In this document: positions 7,921-64,000 of the stretch, in pieces
Numbering within the stretch: position 1 is the stretch's first letter
Layout of the letters: each line of letters begins with the position of its first letter
NCBI GenBank assembly: GCA_020632395.1
Contig: JACKFQ010000001.1
Location: 136,762-200,761, forward strand
Direction: 5' to 3'
Source: Candidatus Nomurabacteria bacterium
GTDB lineage: Bacteria > Patescibacteriota > Dojkabacteria > SC72 > JAHDCA01
DNA: 64,000 nucleotides
Notes under the pieces: generated by a model
Told to the model about the DNA's origin: nothing
The model's input: only the letters and a program-made list of their open reading frames with translations
Databases searched by the model: none
Made by a program: the position numbers and the translations under genes

Positions 7921-8571
7921 CTATAATTGGAGTTTTTTGATCATTAGATAACCGATAAACAGAAATGTTCCAATTGATAATATGATTATTAACAGCTGAA
8001 AGGCACTTACTTCCGGGCGTTCGTATGTATTCTTTTCTTCATCGAGAACTTCAGACAGTCTGATAGGCTCTTCATCTGATGTGGTCGCATTATCGGTGGT
8101 GGTATTTTCCTCGTTGGATGTGTCTAGCTTGGTCGAATCAGGCAGGTTCTCAGAATCATTGGGTTGCTCGGTATCGTTAGGGTCTTGCACCTCTGTTGGC
8201 TCGTCTAGTGGAAGAGCGATACCTGCATTCGCAAAAAGTAACCTCTCAATATCACTTGCTCCTTGATAACAAGTGGAATCAACTACAAGGGTTGGTACTA
8301 TCTGATCATTGTCATTACAAGTCTCAAGATCATTAAGTAGTAATTGTTTGTTTTCGTCTGGAGTAACCTCGATTACTGTGACGTCTAGGATTTCCAATAC
8401 CCCAGAGGGTTCAGCCTCTTCTAATAACTTTTGACAATGCGGACAGCTGTCTAGGACATAAAGGGTATACTTTGAATTCAGATTGTCTTGCGCATATATT
8501 CTTGCGTTGGTCAGGAAAAGAATTCCGTAGAGTGATATTATTATTAATAATGTTTTGATGACTGACTTCAT
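7921..8571 (-). CDS. Membrane-anchored thioredoxin/glutaredoxin-like protein (CPHC motif) with an acidic C-terminal tail and a C-terminal TM segment
   Basis: 216 aa with an N-terminal signal/TM segment, a DSCPHCQKL CxxC motif, an Asp/Glu/Thr-rich tail and a hydrophobic C-terminal segment. Confidence 0.5.
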   Translation of the reverse strand: MKSVIKTLLIIISLYGILFLTNARIYAQDNLNSKYTLYVLDSCPHCQKLLEEAEPSGVLEILDVTVIEVTPDENKQLLLNDLETCNDNDQIVPTLVVDSTCYQGASDIERLLFANAGIALPLDEPTEVQDPNDTEQPNDSENLPDSTKLDTSNEENTTTDNATTSDEEPIRLSEVLDEEKNTYERPEVSAFQLLIIILSIGTFLFIGYLMIKKLQL

Positions 8572-8609
8572 ATATTTTTCAGCTTCTCTAAATATAATTA
8601 TCTTATTAT

Positions 8610-9257
8610 ATGATAAATACAGATATACAACTAGAAAAGAAGCTTTGGGATGAGGGGTTTAAATATATTGTCGGCTTAGATGAGGCTGGACGCGGACCTT
8701 GGGCTGGTCCTGTCGTAGCAGGTGCAGTATTAGTACTTCAGGATCACATACCAGATATTGCTGTAACTGATAGTAAGAAGATGACAGAAGCAAGAAGGCT
8801 CATCGCCTATGAAAAGATCATTAACTCGTCCTATCATAAATGGGGTGTGGGTGTTGTAGAGCCGTCTGTTATTGATACTCTAGGAATAAATGCAGCAATT
8901 CGTATAGCAATGGAGTCAGCAGTAAAGGGTATAGAAACTGAGATCAATAAGCTTGTAGAATATCTACTGATAGATGGTCAGAATGTACAGAGTATTCCTT
9001 TGTATAAGCAATACAAAGTCAATAAAGGTGATGGTTTGCATTATTCCATCGCTGCTGCATCAATCATTGCAAAAGTCACTCGAGATCGAATAATGGAAGA
9101 GTATACGCAGAAATACCCAGAATTCAGATTTGATAAACATAAAGGTTATGGCACAAAACAGCATCAAGAGGAGCTAAAACAACATGGGGTCACAGCAATA
9201 CATAGAAAGACATATGCACCGATTTCAGATATCCTCAAGCATCAGGACTCACAATAA
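8610..9257 (+). CDS. rnhB: Ribonuclease HII
   Basis: 215 aa. The VGLDEAGRGPWAGPVV catalytic-site motif is typical of RNase HII. Confidence 0.85.
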   Translation: MINTDIQLEKKLWDEGFKYIVGLDEAGRGPWAGPVVAGAVLVLQDHIPDIAVTDSKKMTEARRLIAYEKIINSSYHKWGVGVVEPSVIDTLGINAAIRIAMESAVKGIETEINKLVEYLLIDGQNVQSIPLYKQYKVNKGDGLHYSIAAASIIAKVTRDRIMEEYTQKYPEFRFDKHKGYGTKQHQEELKQHGVTAIHRKTYAPISDILKHQDSQ

Positions 9258-9606
9258 GTCTACCTCCACAAAAGGGAAGGTATTTGAAGATATTGTAGAA
9301 AAAGTGTTATGTGATAAGGGATGGAAAGTTCTCGTAAGAAATTTCCATTCGCATCAGGGTGAGATCGACAGATTATTCCAGATGAATGATGAATACATTA
9401 TCGTCGAGGTCAAAGGTGTTTCAGCTAATATCCATTCGTACATAGAAAGCTCTTTCGATATTCGGAAGATCAGAAGAATATTAGGAACTTACGATTATTG
9501 GTGTTACAAAAATGGGGTCTTTGATAAGGATGCTAGATTGGTTTTAGCAATTGTCACAAAGAAAGATGGACTTTTTATTGTAAAACTCCTAAACATTAGA
9601 GTATAA
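9184..9606 (+). CDS. yraN: YraN-family (UPF0102) endonuclease-like protein
   Basis: FEDIVEKVLCDKGWKVLVRNFHSHQGEIDRLF...IIVEVKG matches the UPF0102 pattern. It overlaps the rnhB 3' end, and the true start may be the internal Met at 9214. Confidence 0.55.
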   Translation: MGSQQYIERHMHRFQISSSIRTHNKSTSTKGKVFEDIVEKVLCDKGWKVLVRNFHSHQGEIDRLFQMNDEYIIVEVKGVSANIHSYIESSFDIRKIRRILGTYDYWCYKNGVFDKDARLVLAIVTKKDGLFIVKLLNIRV

Positions 9607-9618
9607 TCTCGCAGTTCT

Positions 9619-9694
9619 GGGCCGCTAGCTCAATTGGCAGAGCATCGGGCTTTTAACCCGCAGGTTCAGGGTTCGACTCCCTGGCGGCTCACCA
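9619..9694 (+). tRNA. tRNA-Lys (anticodon TTT), CCA encoded
   Basis: GGGCCGCTAGCTCAATTGGCAGAGCATCGGGCTTTTAACCCGCAGGTTCAGGGTTCGACTCCCTGGCGGCTCACCA. Confidence 0.8.
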
Positions 9695-10393
9695 TATCCA
9701 TTTCACTATACATTAATCCTTGTTTACTCCTGAATAATTTAGATTGAATACTAATTTTAACGATATAATTACCATGAAAGATTTTTGGAAAGGTGCGTCA
9801 ATTGTATTGAATCTCTTTGGATTTTTAAGTCTTGTGATGCTGTTAATTCTATTCGCAGAAACTAACACTTATCTAGATAGTCCATATTGGGCTGTACATG
9901 CAGCATCAGCGTTCATACTTTTTTCATAAGCATTTTTTCGTTAGTTCTTGCGGCAAATTTACGACGGTTATCAGTCCCAGAAAAACTATTAGAGAAGTTA
10001 AAGAGTGAAGGAGTGGAAATTGAGGAGTAGATTAATTCTCAAACTAAGAGAGTTTTGTTCCTAATTCTTCACATAAATACGTTAGATTGATATGTTATTG
10101 TTTGCAGATAAAGTTTTTCGTCCTATCTACGCCAGATTTATCACAAATATTTGTTCCATTTGTGTAACTGCTACAACTCAAACACCGCTTCCTTCTTTAA
10201 ATATCATTCCAATGTTCCAATTAGTGCAATTCGTTATTGATATTTATCTAAGAATGCTACGGTTTTCTATTCTTGATGCAATGTCTGCAAATCGAGTAGC
10301 TTTCGAATTCATCAACTCAACTCTGAAAATCATTCATCACATCTATCAGATAATGTATAATCGTACATATCTAAGTTTTTCGTTTTATTAGTT

Positions 10394-11221
10394 GTGGAAT
10401 TATTTATTCTATCCTGTTTCGGTTTACCATCGTTTATTCTGCTTATCATGCTACTTACAAATATCAGGCAGATCAATGAATATCAAAGAGGAATACTATT
10501 TGTGATGGGTAAATATAAAAGAGTAGTAAATAGTGGTTGGACATTCATTATTCCAATATTTCAATCTATGAAGATCGTTGATGTTCGTACCAAAACTATT
10601 GATCTTGCTGATCAGGGTGGTATGACTGCAGATAATGTTTCTGTAAAGATTGGTGCCGTAGTATTCTTTAAAATTGTTGATGCCTCTAGAGCTGTTCTAG
10701 AAGTAGAGAATTATCAGTGGGCTATCTCACAGTTGGCTGAGACCACAATGCGAACAGCTGTTGGTGAGGTTGAATTGAACAAACTTTTAAGTGGAAGAGA
10801 TGAAGTTGCAAATAATATTGAAGCTATAATCGAATCAAAGGCTACAGACTGGGGATTACATATTATTGGAGTAGAATTAAAAGATATAGTTCTTCCTGAT
10901 GATATGAAGCGAACAATGGCTAAGCAGGCAGAAGCTGAAAGAGAAAAATTATCTGTCATAACAAAAGCAGAAGGTGAGTTGATAGCAGCAGAGAATCTCT
11001 CAAAGGCTGCAGAAATGATGTCGAAGTCACCAGGAGCACTACATCTTAGAACCTTGAGTACTTTGAACGACCTATCTTCTGACCAATCGAACACAGTGAT
11101 ATTTGCTATCCCGATCGAAGTATTACGGGCTTTTGAGAAGGTTGGAAGTGGTAGCAATCTATCTCTGGATGATATGGCAACTAAGATATCCGGTATGATC
11201 AAAGGAGCGACAAACAAGTAG
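10394..11221 (+). CDS. SPFH/band-7 (stomatin/HflC-like) membrane protein
   Basis: 275 aa. It has an N-terminal TM segment, an SPFH core (YQRGILFVMGKY...VDVRT...) and a C-terminal coiled coil with an AEAEREK repeat. Confidence 0.75.
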   Translation: MELFILSCFGLPSFILLIMLLTNIRQINEYQRGILFVMGKYKRVVNSGWTFIIPIFQSMKIVDVRTKTIDLADQGGMTADNVSVKIGAVVFFKIVDASRAVLEVENYQWAISQLAETTMRTAVGEVELNKLLSGRDEVANNIEAIIESKATDWGLHIIGVELKDIVLPDDMKRTMAKQAEAEREKLSVITKAEGELIAAENLSKAAEMMSKSPGALHLRTLSTLNDLSSDQSNTVIFAIPIEVLRAFEKVGSGSNLSLDDMATKISGMIKGATNK

Positions 11222-58716: not shown

Positions 58717-59387
58717 TTATCAGTCAAATAAAGTAGTGACTTGATCGGAATAGGTATAAAACCGATTGTGATCTTGAATTCTTTAACGATAACCTTGTAG
58801 GCTTCAATATTTATACAGTTCATTAATGCTTGATGATCCAATGTACGTTTTTGTATATCATCTTTATATATTCGACCAAATGAATTATGAGTTAATTGTT
58901 TTACTGCATATAAAGATTCTGCTGATAGGCTATTGAATTTGATACCTAAAAGCTCTGTTTCGATCAACTCTTTTTCGGGAATTGATGCATAAAACTTCGG
59001 GAAGAGCTCTATCCTTAAACGACCTTTATCATATATGAATGGAGTAAATAAAATTTCTAGATCACATGAATCTTGCTTGAAGAAACGAGTATATCTGTTT
59101 GACGAATACCTAATTAAGATATTGGAGAAAGGCATGCTTCTACCTATAAATGTTGATCTGCTATAACCTCTTTCGATCAACTGATCCTCAATCTCGGATC
59201 TATATGCCATATCTGCAATGGTATCGATATCCTTGATCTTTCTATAGTAATTCACATTCTGGGTGTGAGATGTCAATCCAACCGATCCGAGTATGAGTAT
59301 ATTGGGTAAATTGGTTGTGATATTTGAAAAATCCTTAAGCGTTTGTAGCACTAATTCGTTCTGATCTTTGAAATCTTCTATATCCAT
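58713..59387 (-). CDS. Hypothetical protein, possibly nucleotidyltransferase-fold (GS...DID)
   Basis: 224 aa. ILILGSVGL...KDIDTIAD is weakly NTase-like. It overlaps the beta-helix gene by 4 nt and starts ~45 bp from the IS end. Confidence 0.3.
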   Translation of the reverse strand: MDIEDFKDQNELVLQTLKDFSNITTNLPNILILGSVGLTSHTQNVNYYRKIKDIDTIADMAYRSEIEDQLIERGYSRSTFIGRSMPFSNILIRYSSNRYTRFFKQDSCDLEILFTPFIYDKGRLRIELFPKFYASIPEKELIETELLGIKFNSLSAESLYAVKQLTHNSFGRIYKDDIQKRTLDHQALMNCINIEAYKVIVKEFKITIGFIPIPIKSLLYLTDK

Positions 59388-60259
59388 TGATATTTATTAT
59401 ACATCTGCTCCTTCTGTATACACAAATCGGGGTAACAAGACCCCCATTTTTTAGACAGTCCTAAATTTAGTTTTTGGAACTGTTTCCTAAACCCATAAGG
59501 GGAGGTTTTCAGAGAGGAATGTATCCGCTCCCTGTTGTAGTAGTTGATCGTGTGATCTATACCCTCGACAAAGGCTCCACTAGTAGGATACCTTTCAAAC
59601 TCTAACCCCAGATCAGTCTTGAAGTTTCCATAGAAACTTTCCTGATACCCATTCTCCCAAGGTGATGCCTTCTTAGCCATTGACACCTTGATCCCGAGTC
59701 CCTCAACTCGACCCAAATACTCCTGACTACAGTACTCTGCTCCCTGATCCGAATGTACAATATGTGGTACCTGAAACCCTGTGTTAAGAAATGTATCCAG
59801 AAAAGCCCCGATCACCAGATCTTTGGTATGCCTGTTTGATACATTCCAGCCTACAATCTCCCTCGTATACCGATCCATGAAGGTGGCCAGGTAGTAGAAC
59901 TTACTGTTGTATCTCACGTAGGTAAAATCTGATACGTAAGTATGACCCGGCATTACAGGACACCTGTCCTTGGTAAGGTTGGGGTATGGCATCTCTTTAC
60001 GTCTCTCGTCTCTGCGTTTTCTCCATCTGGCTTTACGCTTGTAGGCTTTGAGACCGTACTTCTTCATCACCCGCTGTGCTTTCTTCTTGTTGATCCCAAG
60101 TGCCAGGGCTACCCGTCTGTATCCGTACGCTGGATTGGAGGACATGACATCCACAATCTGCTCTCTCAGGGCTCCATCCTGAACTTCCTTCTTTCTCTTG
60201 TAGTACAGAGATGATCTGGACACACCCAGATCTCTTGCTAACTGGGTCTTACTCTCCAT
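59378..60259 (-). CDS. IS3-family transposase OrfB (DDE/rve integrase core). The ORF reads through the terminal IR into flanking DNA
   Basis: 293 aa with DDE residues (HSDQGAEY...ENGYQESF) and an rve-type core. Confidence 0.75.
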   Translation of the reverse strand: MESKTQLARDLGVSRSSLYYKRKKEVQDGALREQIVDVMSSNPAYGYRRVALALGINKKKAQRVMKKYGLKAYKRKARWRKRRDERRKEMPYPNLTKDRCPVMPGHTYVSDFTYVRYNSKFYYLATFMDRYTREIVGWNVSNRHTKDLVIGAFLDTFLNTGFQVPHIVHSDQGAEYCSQEYLGRVEGLGIKVSMAKKASPWENGYQESFYGNFKTDLGLEFERYPTSGAFVEGIDHTINYYNRERIHSSLKTSPYGFRKQFQKLNLGLSKKWGSCYPDLCIQKEQMYNKYQWI

Positions 60260-60620
60260 CTTCGGGGAAACTTGGTGGGCAAGACTACTTTTTTTTATGC
60301 TTGCTTAGTTCCATTGTGAGTACTCCTACCAGTTCCTTGAGCTGCTGGTTCTCACGTTTGAGACGGTTGTGCTCTGACTTGCTCACATCACTTACCTTTT
60401 CCTTGAGCCAACTGTAGATGGTTTGGATTGTCACTCCGTACTGATCTGCAACCTCCTGTACTCTGGCTCCCGATTTCTCCTTGCTCAGTATCTCCTCTTT
60501 TACCTCTTTTGCTATGGTTGCCATTTTCCCTGTATACTAAACTTAGATCGCAGGAACCTGTAGTCGACATTCTAATGCCGATTTACTAAAACTCCTACTG
60601 TCTAGTATATGGGGGTCACC
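59433..60620 (-). mobile_element. IS3-family insertion sequence (~1.2 kb) with imperfect ~35-40 bp terminal inverted repeats
   Basis: IR at 59436-59475 (CAAGACCCCCATTTTTTAGACAGTCCTAAATTTAG). Its partner at 60580-60619 is the reverse complement of GACCCCCATATACTAGACAGTAGGAGTTTTAGTAAAT. OrfA and OrfB overlap, with an A8G slippery run at ~60283-60292. Confidence 0.7.
60285..60524 (-). CDS. IS3-family transposase OrfA (HTH)
   Basis: 79 aa with an HTH (VQEVADQYGVTIQTIYSWLK) and a leucine-zipper-like tail. It is followed by the A8G frameshift site. Confidence 0.7.
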   Translation of the reverse strand: MATIAKEVKEEILSKEKSGARVQEVADQYGVTIQTIYSWLKEKVSDVSKSEHNRLKRENQQLKELVGVLTMELSKHKKK

Positions 60621-61001: not shown

Positions 61002-61021
61002 ATTATTTATAAATAAATTTA

Positions 61022-61677
61022 AATAATTCCCACAACTTTATTAAAAATTGCTTTACCCAATAATCCATGATTATCAGCATCTATATGAACACCATCAGAT
61101 CCAACTGTAACAAAATCGGAAGAAGATAAAAATTCACAACTGTTTCTTTTTGCAATATCCTTGTACATTACAGGTAAGTACTCGTTTAGTTCTTACGATC
61201 TGCTATATCTCTTTTGAGCATATTCCTTTGTAAGATCCAATATTGGTGGAGATATTAACAGCAGACTTGGAGTTTTATCTGAAAATTGGGATTCTCTATT
61301 CAGAATAATTTTAACATAATGGTTTTCAACTACTGAGGCAAATTGCTCATAGGTCGTTTGAAAAGAGTCCTTCAATTCATTTGTACCAAGCATAAGAATT
61401 ACTAAATCTACTGGATCATGTGTATCTAAGCAAGGTATTAAGTAGGTTGAGCCATTCCTTCCTTCTTTTCCTTCCTTTCCCTCTGGTCATCACTATTAAG
61501 AGTTCTGCTATTTAAGCCTTCTTCAATAACTTCATAGTTGTCTCCTAATTTTTGCTGTAATATACCTGTCCTTCTAGTATCAGCAGGGAATCGCTCATGC
61601 CCAGATGAGGGTATGTATCCCCATGTGTAGGAGTCACCGTAGCAAAGTATTCTTTTTAGGTTTGGTTTTGTGTTCAT
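61022..61677 (-). pseudogene. SGNH/GDSL hydrolase gene disrupted by two frameshifts (three ORF fragments)
   Basis: The fragment 61438-61677 carries LCYGDSYTWG (block I GDS). The fragment 61193-61393 is the middle part. My translation of 61022-61180 gives ...GSDGVHIDADNHGLLGKAIFNKVVGII (block V DGxH). A CT-rich slippery tract lies at 61450-61480. Confidence 0.55.
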
Positions 61678-62414
61678 TTTAAAGTATAACCCCCATCTAC
61701 ATAGATAATCTGCCCTGTCATTGCATCATTTTTAGCTAGAAAAACGAAAGCATCGGCAGTTTCTTCCAATGTAACCCATCTTTTAAGATATGTTCCGTTT
61801 AACCACTTTTCAATTTTTTCTTCTGGTTGATTATCATATACACGAGTCTTTACATAACCAGGTGCAACTGCATTTACTTGAATTTCGGGTGCAACGGACT
61901 TAGCTAATGTCCGTGTAAAACTATTAATTGCAGCTTTTGATACTGCATAGCCAACTGATCCACCTCCATACTCCCAACCCTTTATTGAAGATGTGTTTAT
62001 AATCTTTCCTGATTTTTGTTTCTTCATAACATCAATAGCATATTTAGAGCATAACATTGCATTGACGATATTTAGGTTGAATAAATCTAATATATCCTTT
62101 TGTTTCGCTTCAAAGTATGGAACTAACTCAGTTGGGGATGCACCGTTGTTGATTAAAATATCAACTGTGCCAAATTCCTTTACTACAGTTTCAAACAACT
62201 TTTTTATATCTTCTTCAACCGATAAATCTGCTTTTACGATTATCGACTCCACATTGTATTTTTTAATTTCTTGCTGAGTTTCTTTTGCTCCATCTTCATT
62301 TTCATGATAGTGAATGACAATCTTTGAACCTTCTTGTGCAAATCTTTTAGCTGTAGCTTGTCCAATCCCGCTAGAAGATCCTGTAATTAGTACAACTTTA
62401 TTTTTTAACTCCAT
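61674..62414 (-). CDS. Short-chain dehydrogenase/reductase (FabG-like)
   Basis: TGSSSGIGQATAKRF (TGxxxGxG), NNGA, and the S...YAVSKAA (YxxxK) catalytic motif. Confidence 0.8.
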   Translation of the reverse strand: MELKNKVVLITGSSSGIGQATAKRFAQEGSKIVIHYHENEDGAKETQQEIKKYNVESIIVKADLSVEEDIKKLFETVVKEFGTVDILINNGASPTELVPYFEAKQKDILDLFNLNIVNAMLCSKYAIDVMKKQKSGKIINTSSIKGWEYGGGSVGYAVSKAAINSFTRTLAKSVAPEIQVNAVAPGYVKTRVYDNQPEEKIEKWLNGTYLKRWVTLEETADAFVFLAKNDAMTGQIIYVDGGYTLK

Positions 62415-62433
62415 AATGTTTTTTGTTAATAAT

Positions 62434-63468
62434 TTATTTATCTAAAATTTCTGATTCAATAGCCTTATATTTTTCCTTAACCTCTTCACCACTATAAAAG
62501 TCCAGCAGATCCTTATCAGATAACTTCCCATCGGATAAAAATTTCTCTAGATATTCTTGATTAAACTGCATCAATAATAATGATTTTTCAAGTTGGTTTA
62601 AAATTTCATTGTTATTCCTAATATTTGTTTCAACGAGTGTCTTTATTGAGAAAAGAGTATCAATATCCTTTATTATTCTCTTTAATATAATTGTAAGAGT
62701 TTTATCATCAAAATCAACTTCCTTAGAGTTGAGAACAATGTCTCGAGCTAAATTATAGGCAATTGTTAGGTTAGAATAATCTCCCTTTTGAGAATCTACT
62801 ATCACAATAAATCCTACTCCTTGAATATATGCAACAGAATCTGTCAGCTTCAAAATACTGTTATCAACCAACGATATATCTAAAACTATAATTCCGACCT
62901 TTGCATTTCTATTAGCTTTGGCTTCAATTACTTGACTCCAAGCTGTATCGAATTTCTTTGTAAAAATATCTTTATCAGCAATGTCGCCAAGCTTTATTGA
63001 CTTATCAAACTTAGCCTCAATTGCAATCCTTTTATCTTCATTACCATCAACATAGCAAAGAATATCACCAGTCTTGTTCTTGTCGATCTCTCCTTGCATA
63101 GTACCAGTAGTTTCAGCTTTATCACCTAGTTTCTTTTCTTTGAAATAGTTATTTAAAAACTCAGTAATATCTTCCTCTGCCATCATTCCCTTAACTGTTG
63201 TTTTATAGAATATCTCCTTTTTCATTTCAAAGATCATTTTGAGGCTCTCTAGCTCTGTTCCTAACTCGTTTTGAGTCTTAGCAAGAAACGCTGATAACCT
63301 ATCCTCCATTTGAGCAAGTACTCCGATATATAGTGCTTGAAAGAATTTGTCATCTCTTTGTTCACTTGGTAATGAATCAAAGTAATTGAAGACAATCTCA
63401 TTATCAATTTCTGCTTTATTTATTTTCAGTTTTTTTAGTTTTTGATCAAGTGATACTAGATTTGCCAT
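62434..63468 (-). CDS. Hypothetical protein with a PD-(D/E)xK-like motif (ILCYVDG...RIAIEAKF), partner gene of the upstream OLD-family nuclease
   Basis: 344 aa, no Walker A. The D...ExK pattern sits in a predicted beta-strand context, flanked by coiled-coil-like N- and C-terminal regions. It starts 2 nt after the upstream gene's stop. Confidence 0.3.
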   Translation of the reverse strand: MANLVSLDQKLKKLKINKAEIDNEIVFNYFDSLPSEQRDDKFFQALYIGVLAQMEDRLSAFLAKTQNELGTELESLKMIFEMKKEIFYKTTVKGMMAEEDITEFLNNYFKEKKLGDKAETTGTMQGEIDKNKTGDILCYVDGNEDKRIAIEAKFDKSIKLGDIADKDIFTKKFDTAWSQVIEAKANRNAKVGIIVLDISLVDNSILKLTDSVAYIQGVGFIVIVDSQKGDYSNLTIAYNLARDIVLNSKEVDFDDKTLTIILKRIIKDIDTLFSIKTLVETNIRNNNEILNQLEKSLLLMQFNQEYLEKFLSDGKLSDKDLLDFYSGEEVKEKYKAIESEILDK

Positions 63469-63469
63469 G

Positions 63470-64000
63470 TTATTTGTAAATTAATTTAATTTTCTCTTTG
63501 AATGAATCGGTTAGTCTATAGTTCTCATTACTTACCTCTGTTAGAGCAATAAAAGGTTTATTCTTTTTATTTCCATCCGTGATACCAATTTCTTCTTCAA
63601 TATCATTTTCAAGAATAACTGTGCATCCTAAGCTACTATCTACAGAATCTTCAATTCTCTTTGAATCAGCATCAGCTTTACTCTTATCAGAATCTTTCTT
63701 ATTGCTTTGATGATCTTTATCATAAACCGCTACATAAGGGATTTTAAAGCTATTTAATAGGTGAATATATAGTGGAATACTACTTTTACCTCCACAGTCA
63801 ATTATTGTATATCCGTGTTTAAAAGCCTCAATTGATTTTGCCAAATACGGAATTATTGTCTTATCAGAAGGACCTTCAACTAAAATAGTTTTTTCTGAAA
63901 AGAATAGTTCTCCACGATCTGGGTTGATCCAGTAGGAGAGATTAAAGTGTTTTTTATCATCTATCTCACTAAATAAATCAGTTGTGCATTGGAAGCAGTC
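63470..64000 (-). CDS. OLD-family (overcoming lysogenization defect / GajA-like) ATPase-nuclease, C-terminal Toprim part only. The gene continues beyond the window edge
   Basis: My translation of the minus strand to the window end gives ...SEKTILVEGPSDKTIIPYLAKSIEAFKHGYTIIDCGGKSSIPLYIHLLNSFKIPYVAVYDKDH... This is a Toprim signature: EGxSD ... DxD. The ATPase N-terminus would lie outside the window. Confidence 0.55.
   Translation of the reverse strand, partial: DCFQCTTDLFSEIDDKKHFNLSYWINPDRGELFFSEKTILVEGPSDKTIIPYLAKSIEAFKHGYTIIDCGGKSSIPLYIHLLNSFKIPYVAVYDKDHQSNKKDSDKSKADADSKRIEDSVDSSLGCTVILENDIEEEIGITDGNKKNKPFIALTEVSNENYRLTDSFKEKIKLIYK

Follow-up and report, generated by a model that had tools for sequence, protein, structure and literature searches.

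The right edge of a 64,000-nt stretch of DNA from Candidatus Nomurabacteria bacterium (assembly GCA_020632395.1, contig JACKFQ010000001.1, positions 136,762 to 200,761; the whole stretch is called the window in the following) holds two minus-strand genes, which an initial annotation had described as a truncated two-gene defence module made of an OLD-family Toprim nuclease and an unrecognised protein of 344 amino acids (aa). The gene for the latter, named PD here, is indeed a real open reading frame (ORF), having 2475 homologues at E<=1e-3, among them one 100% identical "hypothetical protein" of Ca. Nomurabacteria. This identical copy sits on a 1.09-Mb contig, of which we took 21 kb (locus L001, with the operon at 8012-11035; assembly GCA_020632435.1, contig JACKFP010000001.1) and which we treated as the source contig for whatever lies past the window's right end. 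The OLD fragment inside the window, which reads ...ILVEGPSDKTIIPY...YVAVYDKDH..., is followed by PD with a single base between the OLD stop codon and the PD ATG, one less than the 2 nt counted originally. On L001, a small gene precedes the complete OLD gene and overlaps its start by 4 nt; its product is a KTSC domain protein (Pfam, E=3.9e-27). Because of this overlap the operon has to be written as KTSC-OLD-PD, with three genes instead of a mere pair. The coordinates are collected in Table 1.

Table 1. Features of the KTSC-OLD-PD locus and its surroundings; positions are those of the window unless L001 is given.
Feature	Position	Strand	Evidence or remark
OLD gene, C-terminal 176 codons and stop	63470..64000	-	translation; Pfam OLD-like_TOPRIM
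OLD stop codon	63470-63472	-	ORF leaves the window at the right edge
OLD Toprim domain, ...ILVEGPSDK...YVAVYDKDH	63713..63904	-	PF20469 over fragment residues 33-96
PD gene, 344 aa, last of the KTSC-OLD-PD operon	62434..63468	-	ORF call, homologues
PD predicted catalytic core	63010..63066	-	D135 63064-63066; E151 63016-63018; K153 63010-63012
OLD complete gene, 591 aa	L001:8224-9999		N-terminal 415 codons beyond the window edge
KTSC gene, 71 aa	L001:8012-8227		beyond the window edge, precedes OLD
IS3-family element	59378-60524	-	orfA HTH_Tnp_1 60285-60524; orfB rve 59378-60259
Broken GDSL/SGNH hydrolase candidate, three short consecutive ORFs	61019-61677	-	first fragment (CYGDSYTWGY...) against Lipase_GDSL_2 E=0.0014, sub-threshold
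Short-chain dehydrogenase (SDR) gene	61674-62414	-	adh_short_C2 E=5e-56; begins 20 nt past the PD stop

The 176-aa fragment of OLD matches the Pfam family OLD-like_TOPRIM (PF20469, E=1.2e-18) as well as the Old and GajA models of PADLOC and contains the Toprim motifs ILVEGPSD and VYDKDH, in line with the first assignment. The full protein on L001 additionally gave the Pfam matches AAA_15 (E=4.7e-43), AAA_21 and AAA_23 next to OLD_TOPRIM. It carries the Walker A motif GQNNHGKSN and, in ...FILEEPELYLHP, a Walker B-like motif, both outside the window, so that the ABC/AAA-type ATPase N-terminus that had been anticipated upstream is present. Of the PADLOC models, Old fits the full protein best (E=1.7e-76), better than AriA and GajA, and the closest solved structure is the class 1 enzyme TsOLD (6P74, E=2.4e-28), with GajA at ~1e-12. 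From its sequence, we assign the protein as a complete, class-1-like ABC-ATPase/Toprim nuclease. Enzymes of this kind are known to act against phages as abortive or nucleolytic effectors.

The OLD classes are defined by gene context, with class 1 being a stand-alone gene (PMC10568477). The class 1 representatives P2 Old and Thermus scotoductus OLD (6P74) are the likeness suggested by the best structure match and the best PADLOC model. Unlike them, the window OLD does not stand alone, since KTSC overlaps its 5' side and PD lies 1 nt behind it. Gabija (GajA-GajB), the class 2 arrangement, is similar in that an OLD-type ATPase-Toprim protein shares an operon with a second DNA-acting protein. There, however, the second protein is a UvrD/PcrA-like helicase, whereas here it is a PD-(D/E)xK protein without ATPase motif; no helicase is near, PD matches no ATPase or helicase, and the GajA models score far below Old. 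The retron-associated class 3 is characterised by a reverse transcriptase (RT), which the locus does not contain, and no noncoding RNA of Rfam matches in L001:7000-13000. In class 4 (PARIS), AriA and AriB (DUF4435) are separate proteins, while ATPase and Toprim are here fused in one 591-aa chain. Among the called genes up to 10 kb on either side on L001 there is no helicase, RT, SIR2 or HerA. The KTSC-OLD-PD neighbourhood thus matches none of the context-defined classes 1 to 4.

PD has no family of its own in Pfam, NCBIfam or PADLOC. Pfam returned one weak unrelated match, PADLOC nothing at E<=1 and PHROGs weak and short matches only, and we found no name for the family in the profile libraries and the literature searched. 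None of Pfam, NCBIfam and PADLOC gave an ATPase or helicase motif and no PADLOC model contains the protein, which agrees with its original description as an unrecognised partner free of such motifs. The three homologues P0094, P0110 and P0084 (~67% identical) score 28-31 bits against PDDEXK_15 (PF24608; cutoff 27) across the nuclease core. This Pfam model spans ~100 residues only, and although it is named "Phage putative PDDEXK endonuclease", tblastn detected no PD homologue in 50,697 phage records. Two AlphaFold models were calculated, one from a 20-sequence alignment with a mean predicted local distance difference test (pLDDT) score of 69 and one from a more diverse 50-sequence alignment with a mean of 82. 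In both, residues ~115-250 form an alpha/beta core, with long helices before it (35-111) and after it (255-343). A profile search of the PDB sequences with PD gave noise only.

For the motif we compared alignments of 20 close sequences, of 50 sequences and of 11 divergent sequences at 23-36% identity. D135, E151 and K153 are invariant in all three, and so are K132, Q179 and D197. In the second AlphaFold model, D135 is placed just before the strand 136-139, with E151 and K153 inside the strand 147-153. Of the VDG...IEAK pattern noticed originally, the IEAK half with E151 and K153 was right; the Asp of VDG varies, and the conserved acid is D135 in "NKTGD". Models, PDDEXK_15 matches of homologues and the invariant motif point to a PD-(D/E)xK restriction-endonuclease-like fold with long, coiled-coil-like helical arms, just as the initial annotation had supposed, and metal-dependent cleavage is the predicted activity. 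The Shedu/DUF4263-like identity that had also been suggested was rejected, as no such profile matched in Pfam or PADLOC. Divergent members of the family are larger (460-495 aa, for example L088:6046-7494) and combine an N-terminal coiled coil with a C-terminal SAP (DNA-binding) domain; these SAP-type variants are found at the end of a gene cluster that also contains dndD- and dndE-like genes.

Scanning one genome per species gave 268 loci with a PD relative, and the best-scoring 80 were analysed by calling, clustering and annotating their ORFs. Carriers were found in Bacteroidota, Patescibacteria, Ignavibacteriota, Pseudomonadota and other phyla. PD always closes a run of genes that point the same way, has the strand of its upstream neighbour in 77 of 78 loci and is mostly separated from it by 0-8 nt. 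The most frequent arrangement is SIR2-HerA followed by KTSC, in 33 of the 80 loci, and the SIR2 and HerA proteins match the PADLOC SIR2-HerA models with E=1e-113 and 1e-162. OLD genes, which belong to three lineages, precede PD in about 16/80 loci. An AAA_13 ATPase (the PADLOC candidate PDC-S06) was seen ten times, LmuB-like (Lamassu-like) SMC ATPases seven times and PDC-S46 three times, while BrxL and a GmrSD-like enzyme occur in one locus each. In one further locus (L062) a UG39 defence-associated reverse transcriptase (DRT) is positioned between OLD and PD. A more distant PD homologue also stands behind GmrSD. Every resolvable gene upstream of PD is a known or candidate defence gene, and we conclude that the number of such systems carrying a PD gene is at least ten.

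A KTSC-domain ORF is present in 51 of the 68 PD loci that have enough upstream sequence, and the full order KTSC-OLD-PD was found in about 16/80 genome loci and in four metagenome loci. An independent annotation of the Paracoccus zhejiangensis plasmid pPZ02 (CP025432) lists SIR2, DUF87, KTSC and a hypothetical protein. Among cultured carriers, Limibacterium fermenti (CP159486) has SIR2-HerA-KTSC-PD, and Chryseobacterium sp. SW-1 (CP183840) has an SMC-like gene, a coiled-coil gene and PD. Plasmids provided a single match to PD, and IMG/VR provided three contigs with the layouts SIR2-HerA-KTSC-PD or KTSC-PD. Many ATPase-PD operons open with small WYL or WYL-like proteins of 83-96 aa (L010:52-339, L076:5425-5673 and similar); among these, Pfam WYL matches the 83-aa type alone (E=2.5e-9). 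A 72-aa family (c5) likewise opens many of these operons, where it replaces or adjoins KTSC; hhalign of KTSC against the c5 proteins, which look KTSC-like, gave a probability of 7%. In Lacinutrix neustonica (L078:3052-8000), the HerA gene upstream of KTSC-PD is apparently broken into short ORFs, one of them a 208-aa HerA_C fragment, with KTSC and PD remaining intact.

The same picture emerged from the side of OLD. A metagenome scan with the window OLD yielded 80 loci. Among the relatives that are 50-59% identical over the full length, PD is found downstream only in L096, L100, L101 and L107, which is 4 of about two dozen with room for it. The other close relatives include several with KTSC and no PD, some that are solitary and some within a BsaWI-type (type II) restriction-modification (R-M) locus. 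In yet other cases the gene behind OLD or OLD-KTSC codes for a DUF2130 protein instead of PD (L099:5773-6927, L109:1604-2911, L115:973-2286). A zinc-ribbon-like motif lies at the N-terminus of these DUF2130 proteins, which also carry a GAD...WESK motif and low-complexity stretches resembling a coiled coil; when PD was aligned to DUF2130 with hhalign, the probability was 9.9%. Because most close OLD relatives lack PD, OLD and PD have to be seen as independent modules that are sometimes joined. PD also occurs without KTSC, in BrxL-PD, GmrSD-PD and WYL-like-AAA_13-PD loci, and KTSC itself appears in PD loci as fusions with HerA (L012:5896-7992), with PIN_8 (L008:5254-6219) and with a Schlafen AlbA_2/HATPase_c_4 protein (L068:773-2617). 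The two-gene module of the initial annotation therefore does not hold in that form: the operon has three genes, OLD is upstream in a minority of the loci, and the PD tree ignores the partner type. As for the question whether the two genes are conserved together, the answer is divided. The pair recurs, for instance in the Dojkabacteria locus L004, yet family-wide neither gene depends on the other, given the roughly 16/80 loci with OLD upstream and the four of two dozen OLD relatives with PD.

On a neighbour-joining tree of PD the partner types are interleaved. PD genes with 88-93% DNA identity sit behind unrelated PDC-S46, HerA-KTSC, SMC-like or OLD genes. The DNA shared by such near-identical copies starts within ~25 nt of the ATG and ends either with the stop codon or 110-360 nt further on; the downstream flanks differ too, and the sequences ahead of the PD start showed no conserved junction motif. 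The replacement can also affect the middle gene. Between L001 and the Dojkabacteria locus L003, KTSC shows 78% DNA identity from its ATG and PD 75% from its ATG, while the OLD genes in between belong to different lineages with 27% amino-acid identity. In L059 and L081, a c5 gene and an OLD gene lie between KTSC and PD of an otherwise typical SIR2-HerA-KTSC-PD operon, and in L062 and L076 hsdS and hsdR enclose an entire KTSC-X-PD block.

Additionally, we compared the mean amino-acid identities of PD and of its partners, measured in the same pairs of loci. In the SIR2-HerA-KTSC loci PD reaches 78%, compared with 44% for SIR2, 52% for HerA and 56% for KTSC. In the OLD loci the values are 72% for PD and 48% for OLD, and in the AAA_13 loci 75% for PD and 39% for AAA_13. 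PD is more conserved than any of its partners. The ratio of nonsynonymous to synonymous substitution rates (dN/dS) among close PD alleles is ~0.04 (0.03-0.05) over the full length, including the helical arms.

We consider it probable, at roughly 60%, that the KTSC-OLD-PD operon consists of a class-1-like OLD joined to a portable terminal nuclease of a constrained family, which stands behind many different defence modules. This reading builds on the gene content, the fold, the conserved motif, the modular distribution, the gene-sized recombination boundaries and the purifying selection described above. Recombination would place PD as the last gene behind a defence module, where it is probably translationally coupled to the preceding defence gene and made together with it. 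PD would then act as an additional DNA-cutting effector, directed at nucleic acid without a dedicated contact to OLD, and it might produce DNA ends that are sensed by such ATPases. KTSC, a small putative nucleic-acid-binding protein, would go with the ATPase part and not with PD. One may speculate further that PD represents a new defence component: a partner-agnostic, gene-sized nuclease cassette that is start/stop-coupled to nearly any defence operon at its 3' end, is moved by recombination and serves unrelated sensors as a common downstream step, for example degrading DNA or generating ends. Its conservation would then reflect contact with a universal cellular or nucleic-acid target and not with the genes of its operon. 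We put this idea forward tentatively and would not yet bet on it.

Several points weigh against the portable-nuclease reading. The 80 loci are the top-scoring subset of 268 and many are contigs of metagenome-assembled genomes, although complete isolate genomes and a plasmid share the layouts. The PD protein of the window itself has no PDDEXK_15 match at E<=1, and Foldseek of its model against the PDB gave a best E of 0.27, which is not significant. The neighbour-joining tree has no support values. The five closest relatives from the candidate phyla radiation (CPR; L001, L003-L006) always have some OLD upstream of PD, and here PD may need an ATPase of the OLD type. An add-on that is simply indifferent to its partner leaves the tight stop-codon coupling and the extreme constraint on PD unexplained. 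Finally, it is predicted from sequence that PD cuts nucleic acid, serves in defence, works independently of its partner and is translationally coupled to, or co-translated with, the gene before it.

The closeness of OLD and PD, which are just 1 nt apart, could alternatively be taken as the sign of a dedicated two- or three-gene system and hence of a new OLD class, in which PD is the obligate effector or partner in the way that GajB is for GajA. The recurrence of KTSC-OLD-PD in the genome and metagenome loci fits with this, as does the OLD of one lineage or another upstream of PD in all five CPR relatives, and the DUF2130 protein behind some PD-less OLDs could be an analogous nuclease. Yet most PD genes follow genes other than OLD, nearly identical PD genes follow unrelated partners, and PD and DUF2130 are both missing from most close OLD relatives. 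A co-evolving interface between OLD and PD is disfavoured because three OLD lineages, down to 23-27% identity, pair with PD proteins that are ~72-79% identical. We therefore regard a dedicated OLD system as improbable. Another possibility turns the roles around: KTSC and PD, mostly as SIR2-HerA-KTSC-PD, would be the constant base, the junction between them a hotspot for nested defence genes, OLD the cargo, and PD would work with KTSC and/or HerA. The SIR2-HerA-KTSC-c5-OLD-PD order in L059 and L081 can be read in this way, and so can the swapped middle gene between the retained KTSC and PD flanks of L001 and L003. The genes in the slot are of the kinds reported as embedded elsewhere, namely ABC ATPase-Toprim, GmrSD-like and PIN (bioRxiv 10.1101/2024.01.29.577857), whole KTSC-X-PD blocks lie in turn between hsdS and hsdR, and systems of HerA, KTSC and an endoDNase are mentioned as an unpublished observation of the Aravind laboratory (PMC9503650). 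However, most KTSC-X-PD loci, including that of the window, have no SIR2-HerA nearby, PD occurs without both KTSC and HerA behind BrxL, GmrSD and WYL-like plus AAA_13 or SMC genes, and KTSC-OLD exists without PD. This makes a nested OLD cargo rather unlikely in our estimate, albeit worth keeping in mind.

PD could, as a third explanation, also be a selfish mobile nuclease, a cassette resembling a homing endonuclease that enters the 3' ends of defence-island operons and contributes nothing to defence. PD-(D/E)xK homing endonucleases exist. The gene-exact boundaries of the shared DNA, the variation of both flanks among the 88-93% identical copies, the spread over many phyla and the low GC setting would all suit such an element. 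An element of this type is nevertheless hard to reconcile with a dN/dS of ~0.04 that extends over the whole length and through the helical arms, with the common orientation (77/78) and the distance of just a few nt to the stop codon upstream, and with upstream genes that are, wherever resolvable, known or candidate defence genes. A conserved target or junction sequence was not seen, and the gene is nearly absent from phages (0/50,697), plasmids (1) and IMG/VR (3 contigs). We hold a purely selfish PD to be highly improbable, and the portable terminal nuclease described above remains our preferred interpretation.

PD shares features with several known systems. SIR2-HerA (Nezha), the commonest upstream partner of the family, is absent from the window's own locus. 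In published accounts, SIR2-HerA systems are described as consisting of two genes, to which the PD-family loci add KTSC and PD. A DUF4297/Cap4-like PD-(D/E)xK effector is common to HerA-DUF4297 and Lamassu (LmuA) and is thus combined with different ATPases, HerA and the SMC-like LmuB. PD, too, follows HerA and LmuB-like ATPases. It differs from LmuA and DUF4297 in that it does not match those PADLOC models, is a separate 3' gene, is much better conserved than its partners and is found behind non-ATPase systems such as GmrSD as well. Embedded defence genes, OLD-like ABC ATPase-Toprim, GmrSD-like and PIN, were reported in Hma/HEC, BREX and type I R-M systems (Payne et al. 2024, bioRxiv 10.1101/2024.01.29.577857). 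The nesting of KTSC-X-PD in type I R-M loci and of OLD between KTSC and PD is comparable, but the constant element here is one small conserved terminal nuclease gene and not a multi-gene host system. PD is absent from the candidates of Payne et al. 2024 and from PADLOC v2.

The surroundings of the operon were examined on both sides. The GC content is 30-32% at 62000-64000 compared with ~40% further left, and the low-GC stretch extends over ~10 kb on the source contig. The IS3 element, with a GC content of 46-49% surrounded by 31-35%, was correctly placed next to this AT-rich island. The decayed SGNH gene noted earlier is borne out to the extent that three short ORFs are present; the similarity is limited to the first fragment and stays below the threshold. 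The SDR gene directly behind PD was considered as a fourth member of the operon and rejected; it is probably outside the system, because it is not found beside PD in other genomes. Promoter and terminator scans of the locus performed no better than on shuffled sequence. Upstream of the operon, L001:339-5457 contains a tRNA-Pro and genes with weak Phage_rep_O and Replic_Relax matches, and because of these the operon may sit in an integrated mobile element that adjoins the tRNA gene. The setting is that of a defence/mobile island, and neither component is of a new kind, one being an OLD nuclease and the other a PD-(D/E)xK nuclease.

The literature that we searched on KTSC, on PF24608/PDDEXK_15 and on DUF2130 in defence contains something akin to the arrangement in only one sentence, on HerA coupled to an endoDNase and a KTSC protein, which is cited there as unpublished (PMC9503650). 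OLD classes are sorted by their gene neighbours, and KTSC-OLD-PD falls outside classes 1 to 4. More importantly, the 344-aa gene exposes a conserved nuclease family that spans many defence systems and phyla and that PADLOC v2 does not cover. If PD contributes to defence, SIR2-HerA, PDC-S06, PDC-S46 and class-1-like OLD would have natural versions with an extra effector, and this would bear on the delimitation and testing of several published two- and single-gene systems. With its gene-exact recombination boundaries and a dN/dS of ~0.04, the family is a tractable case for studying the modular assembly of defence operons.

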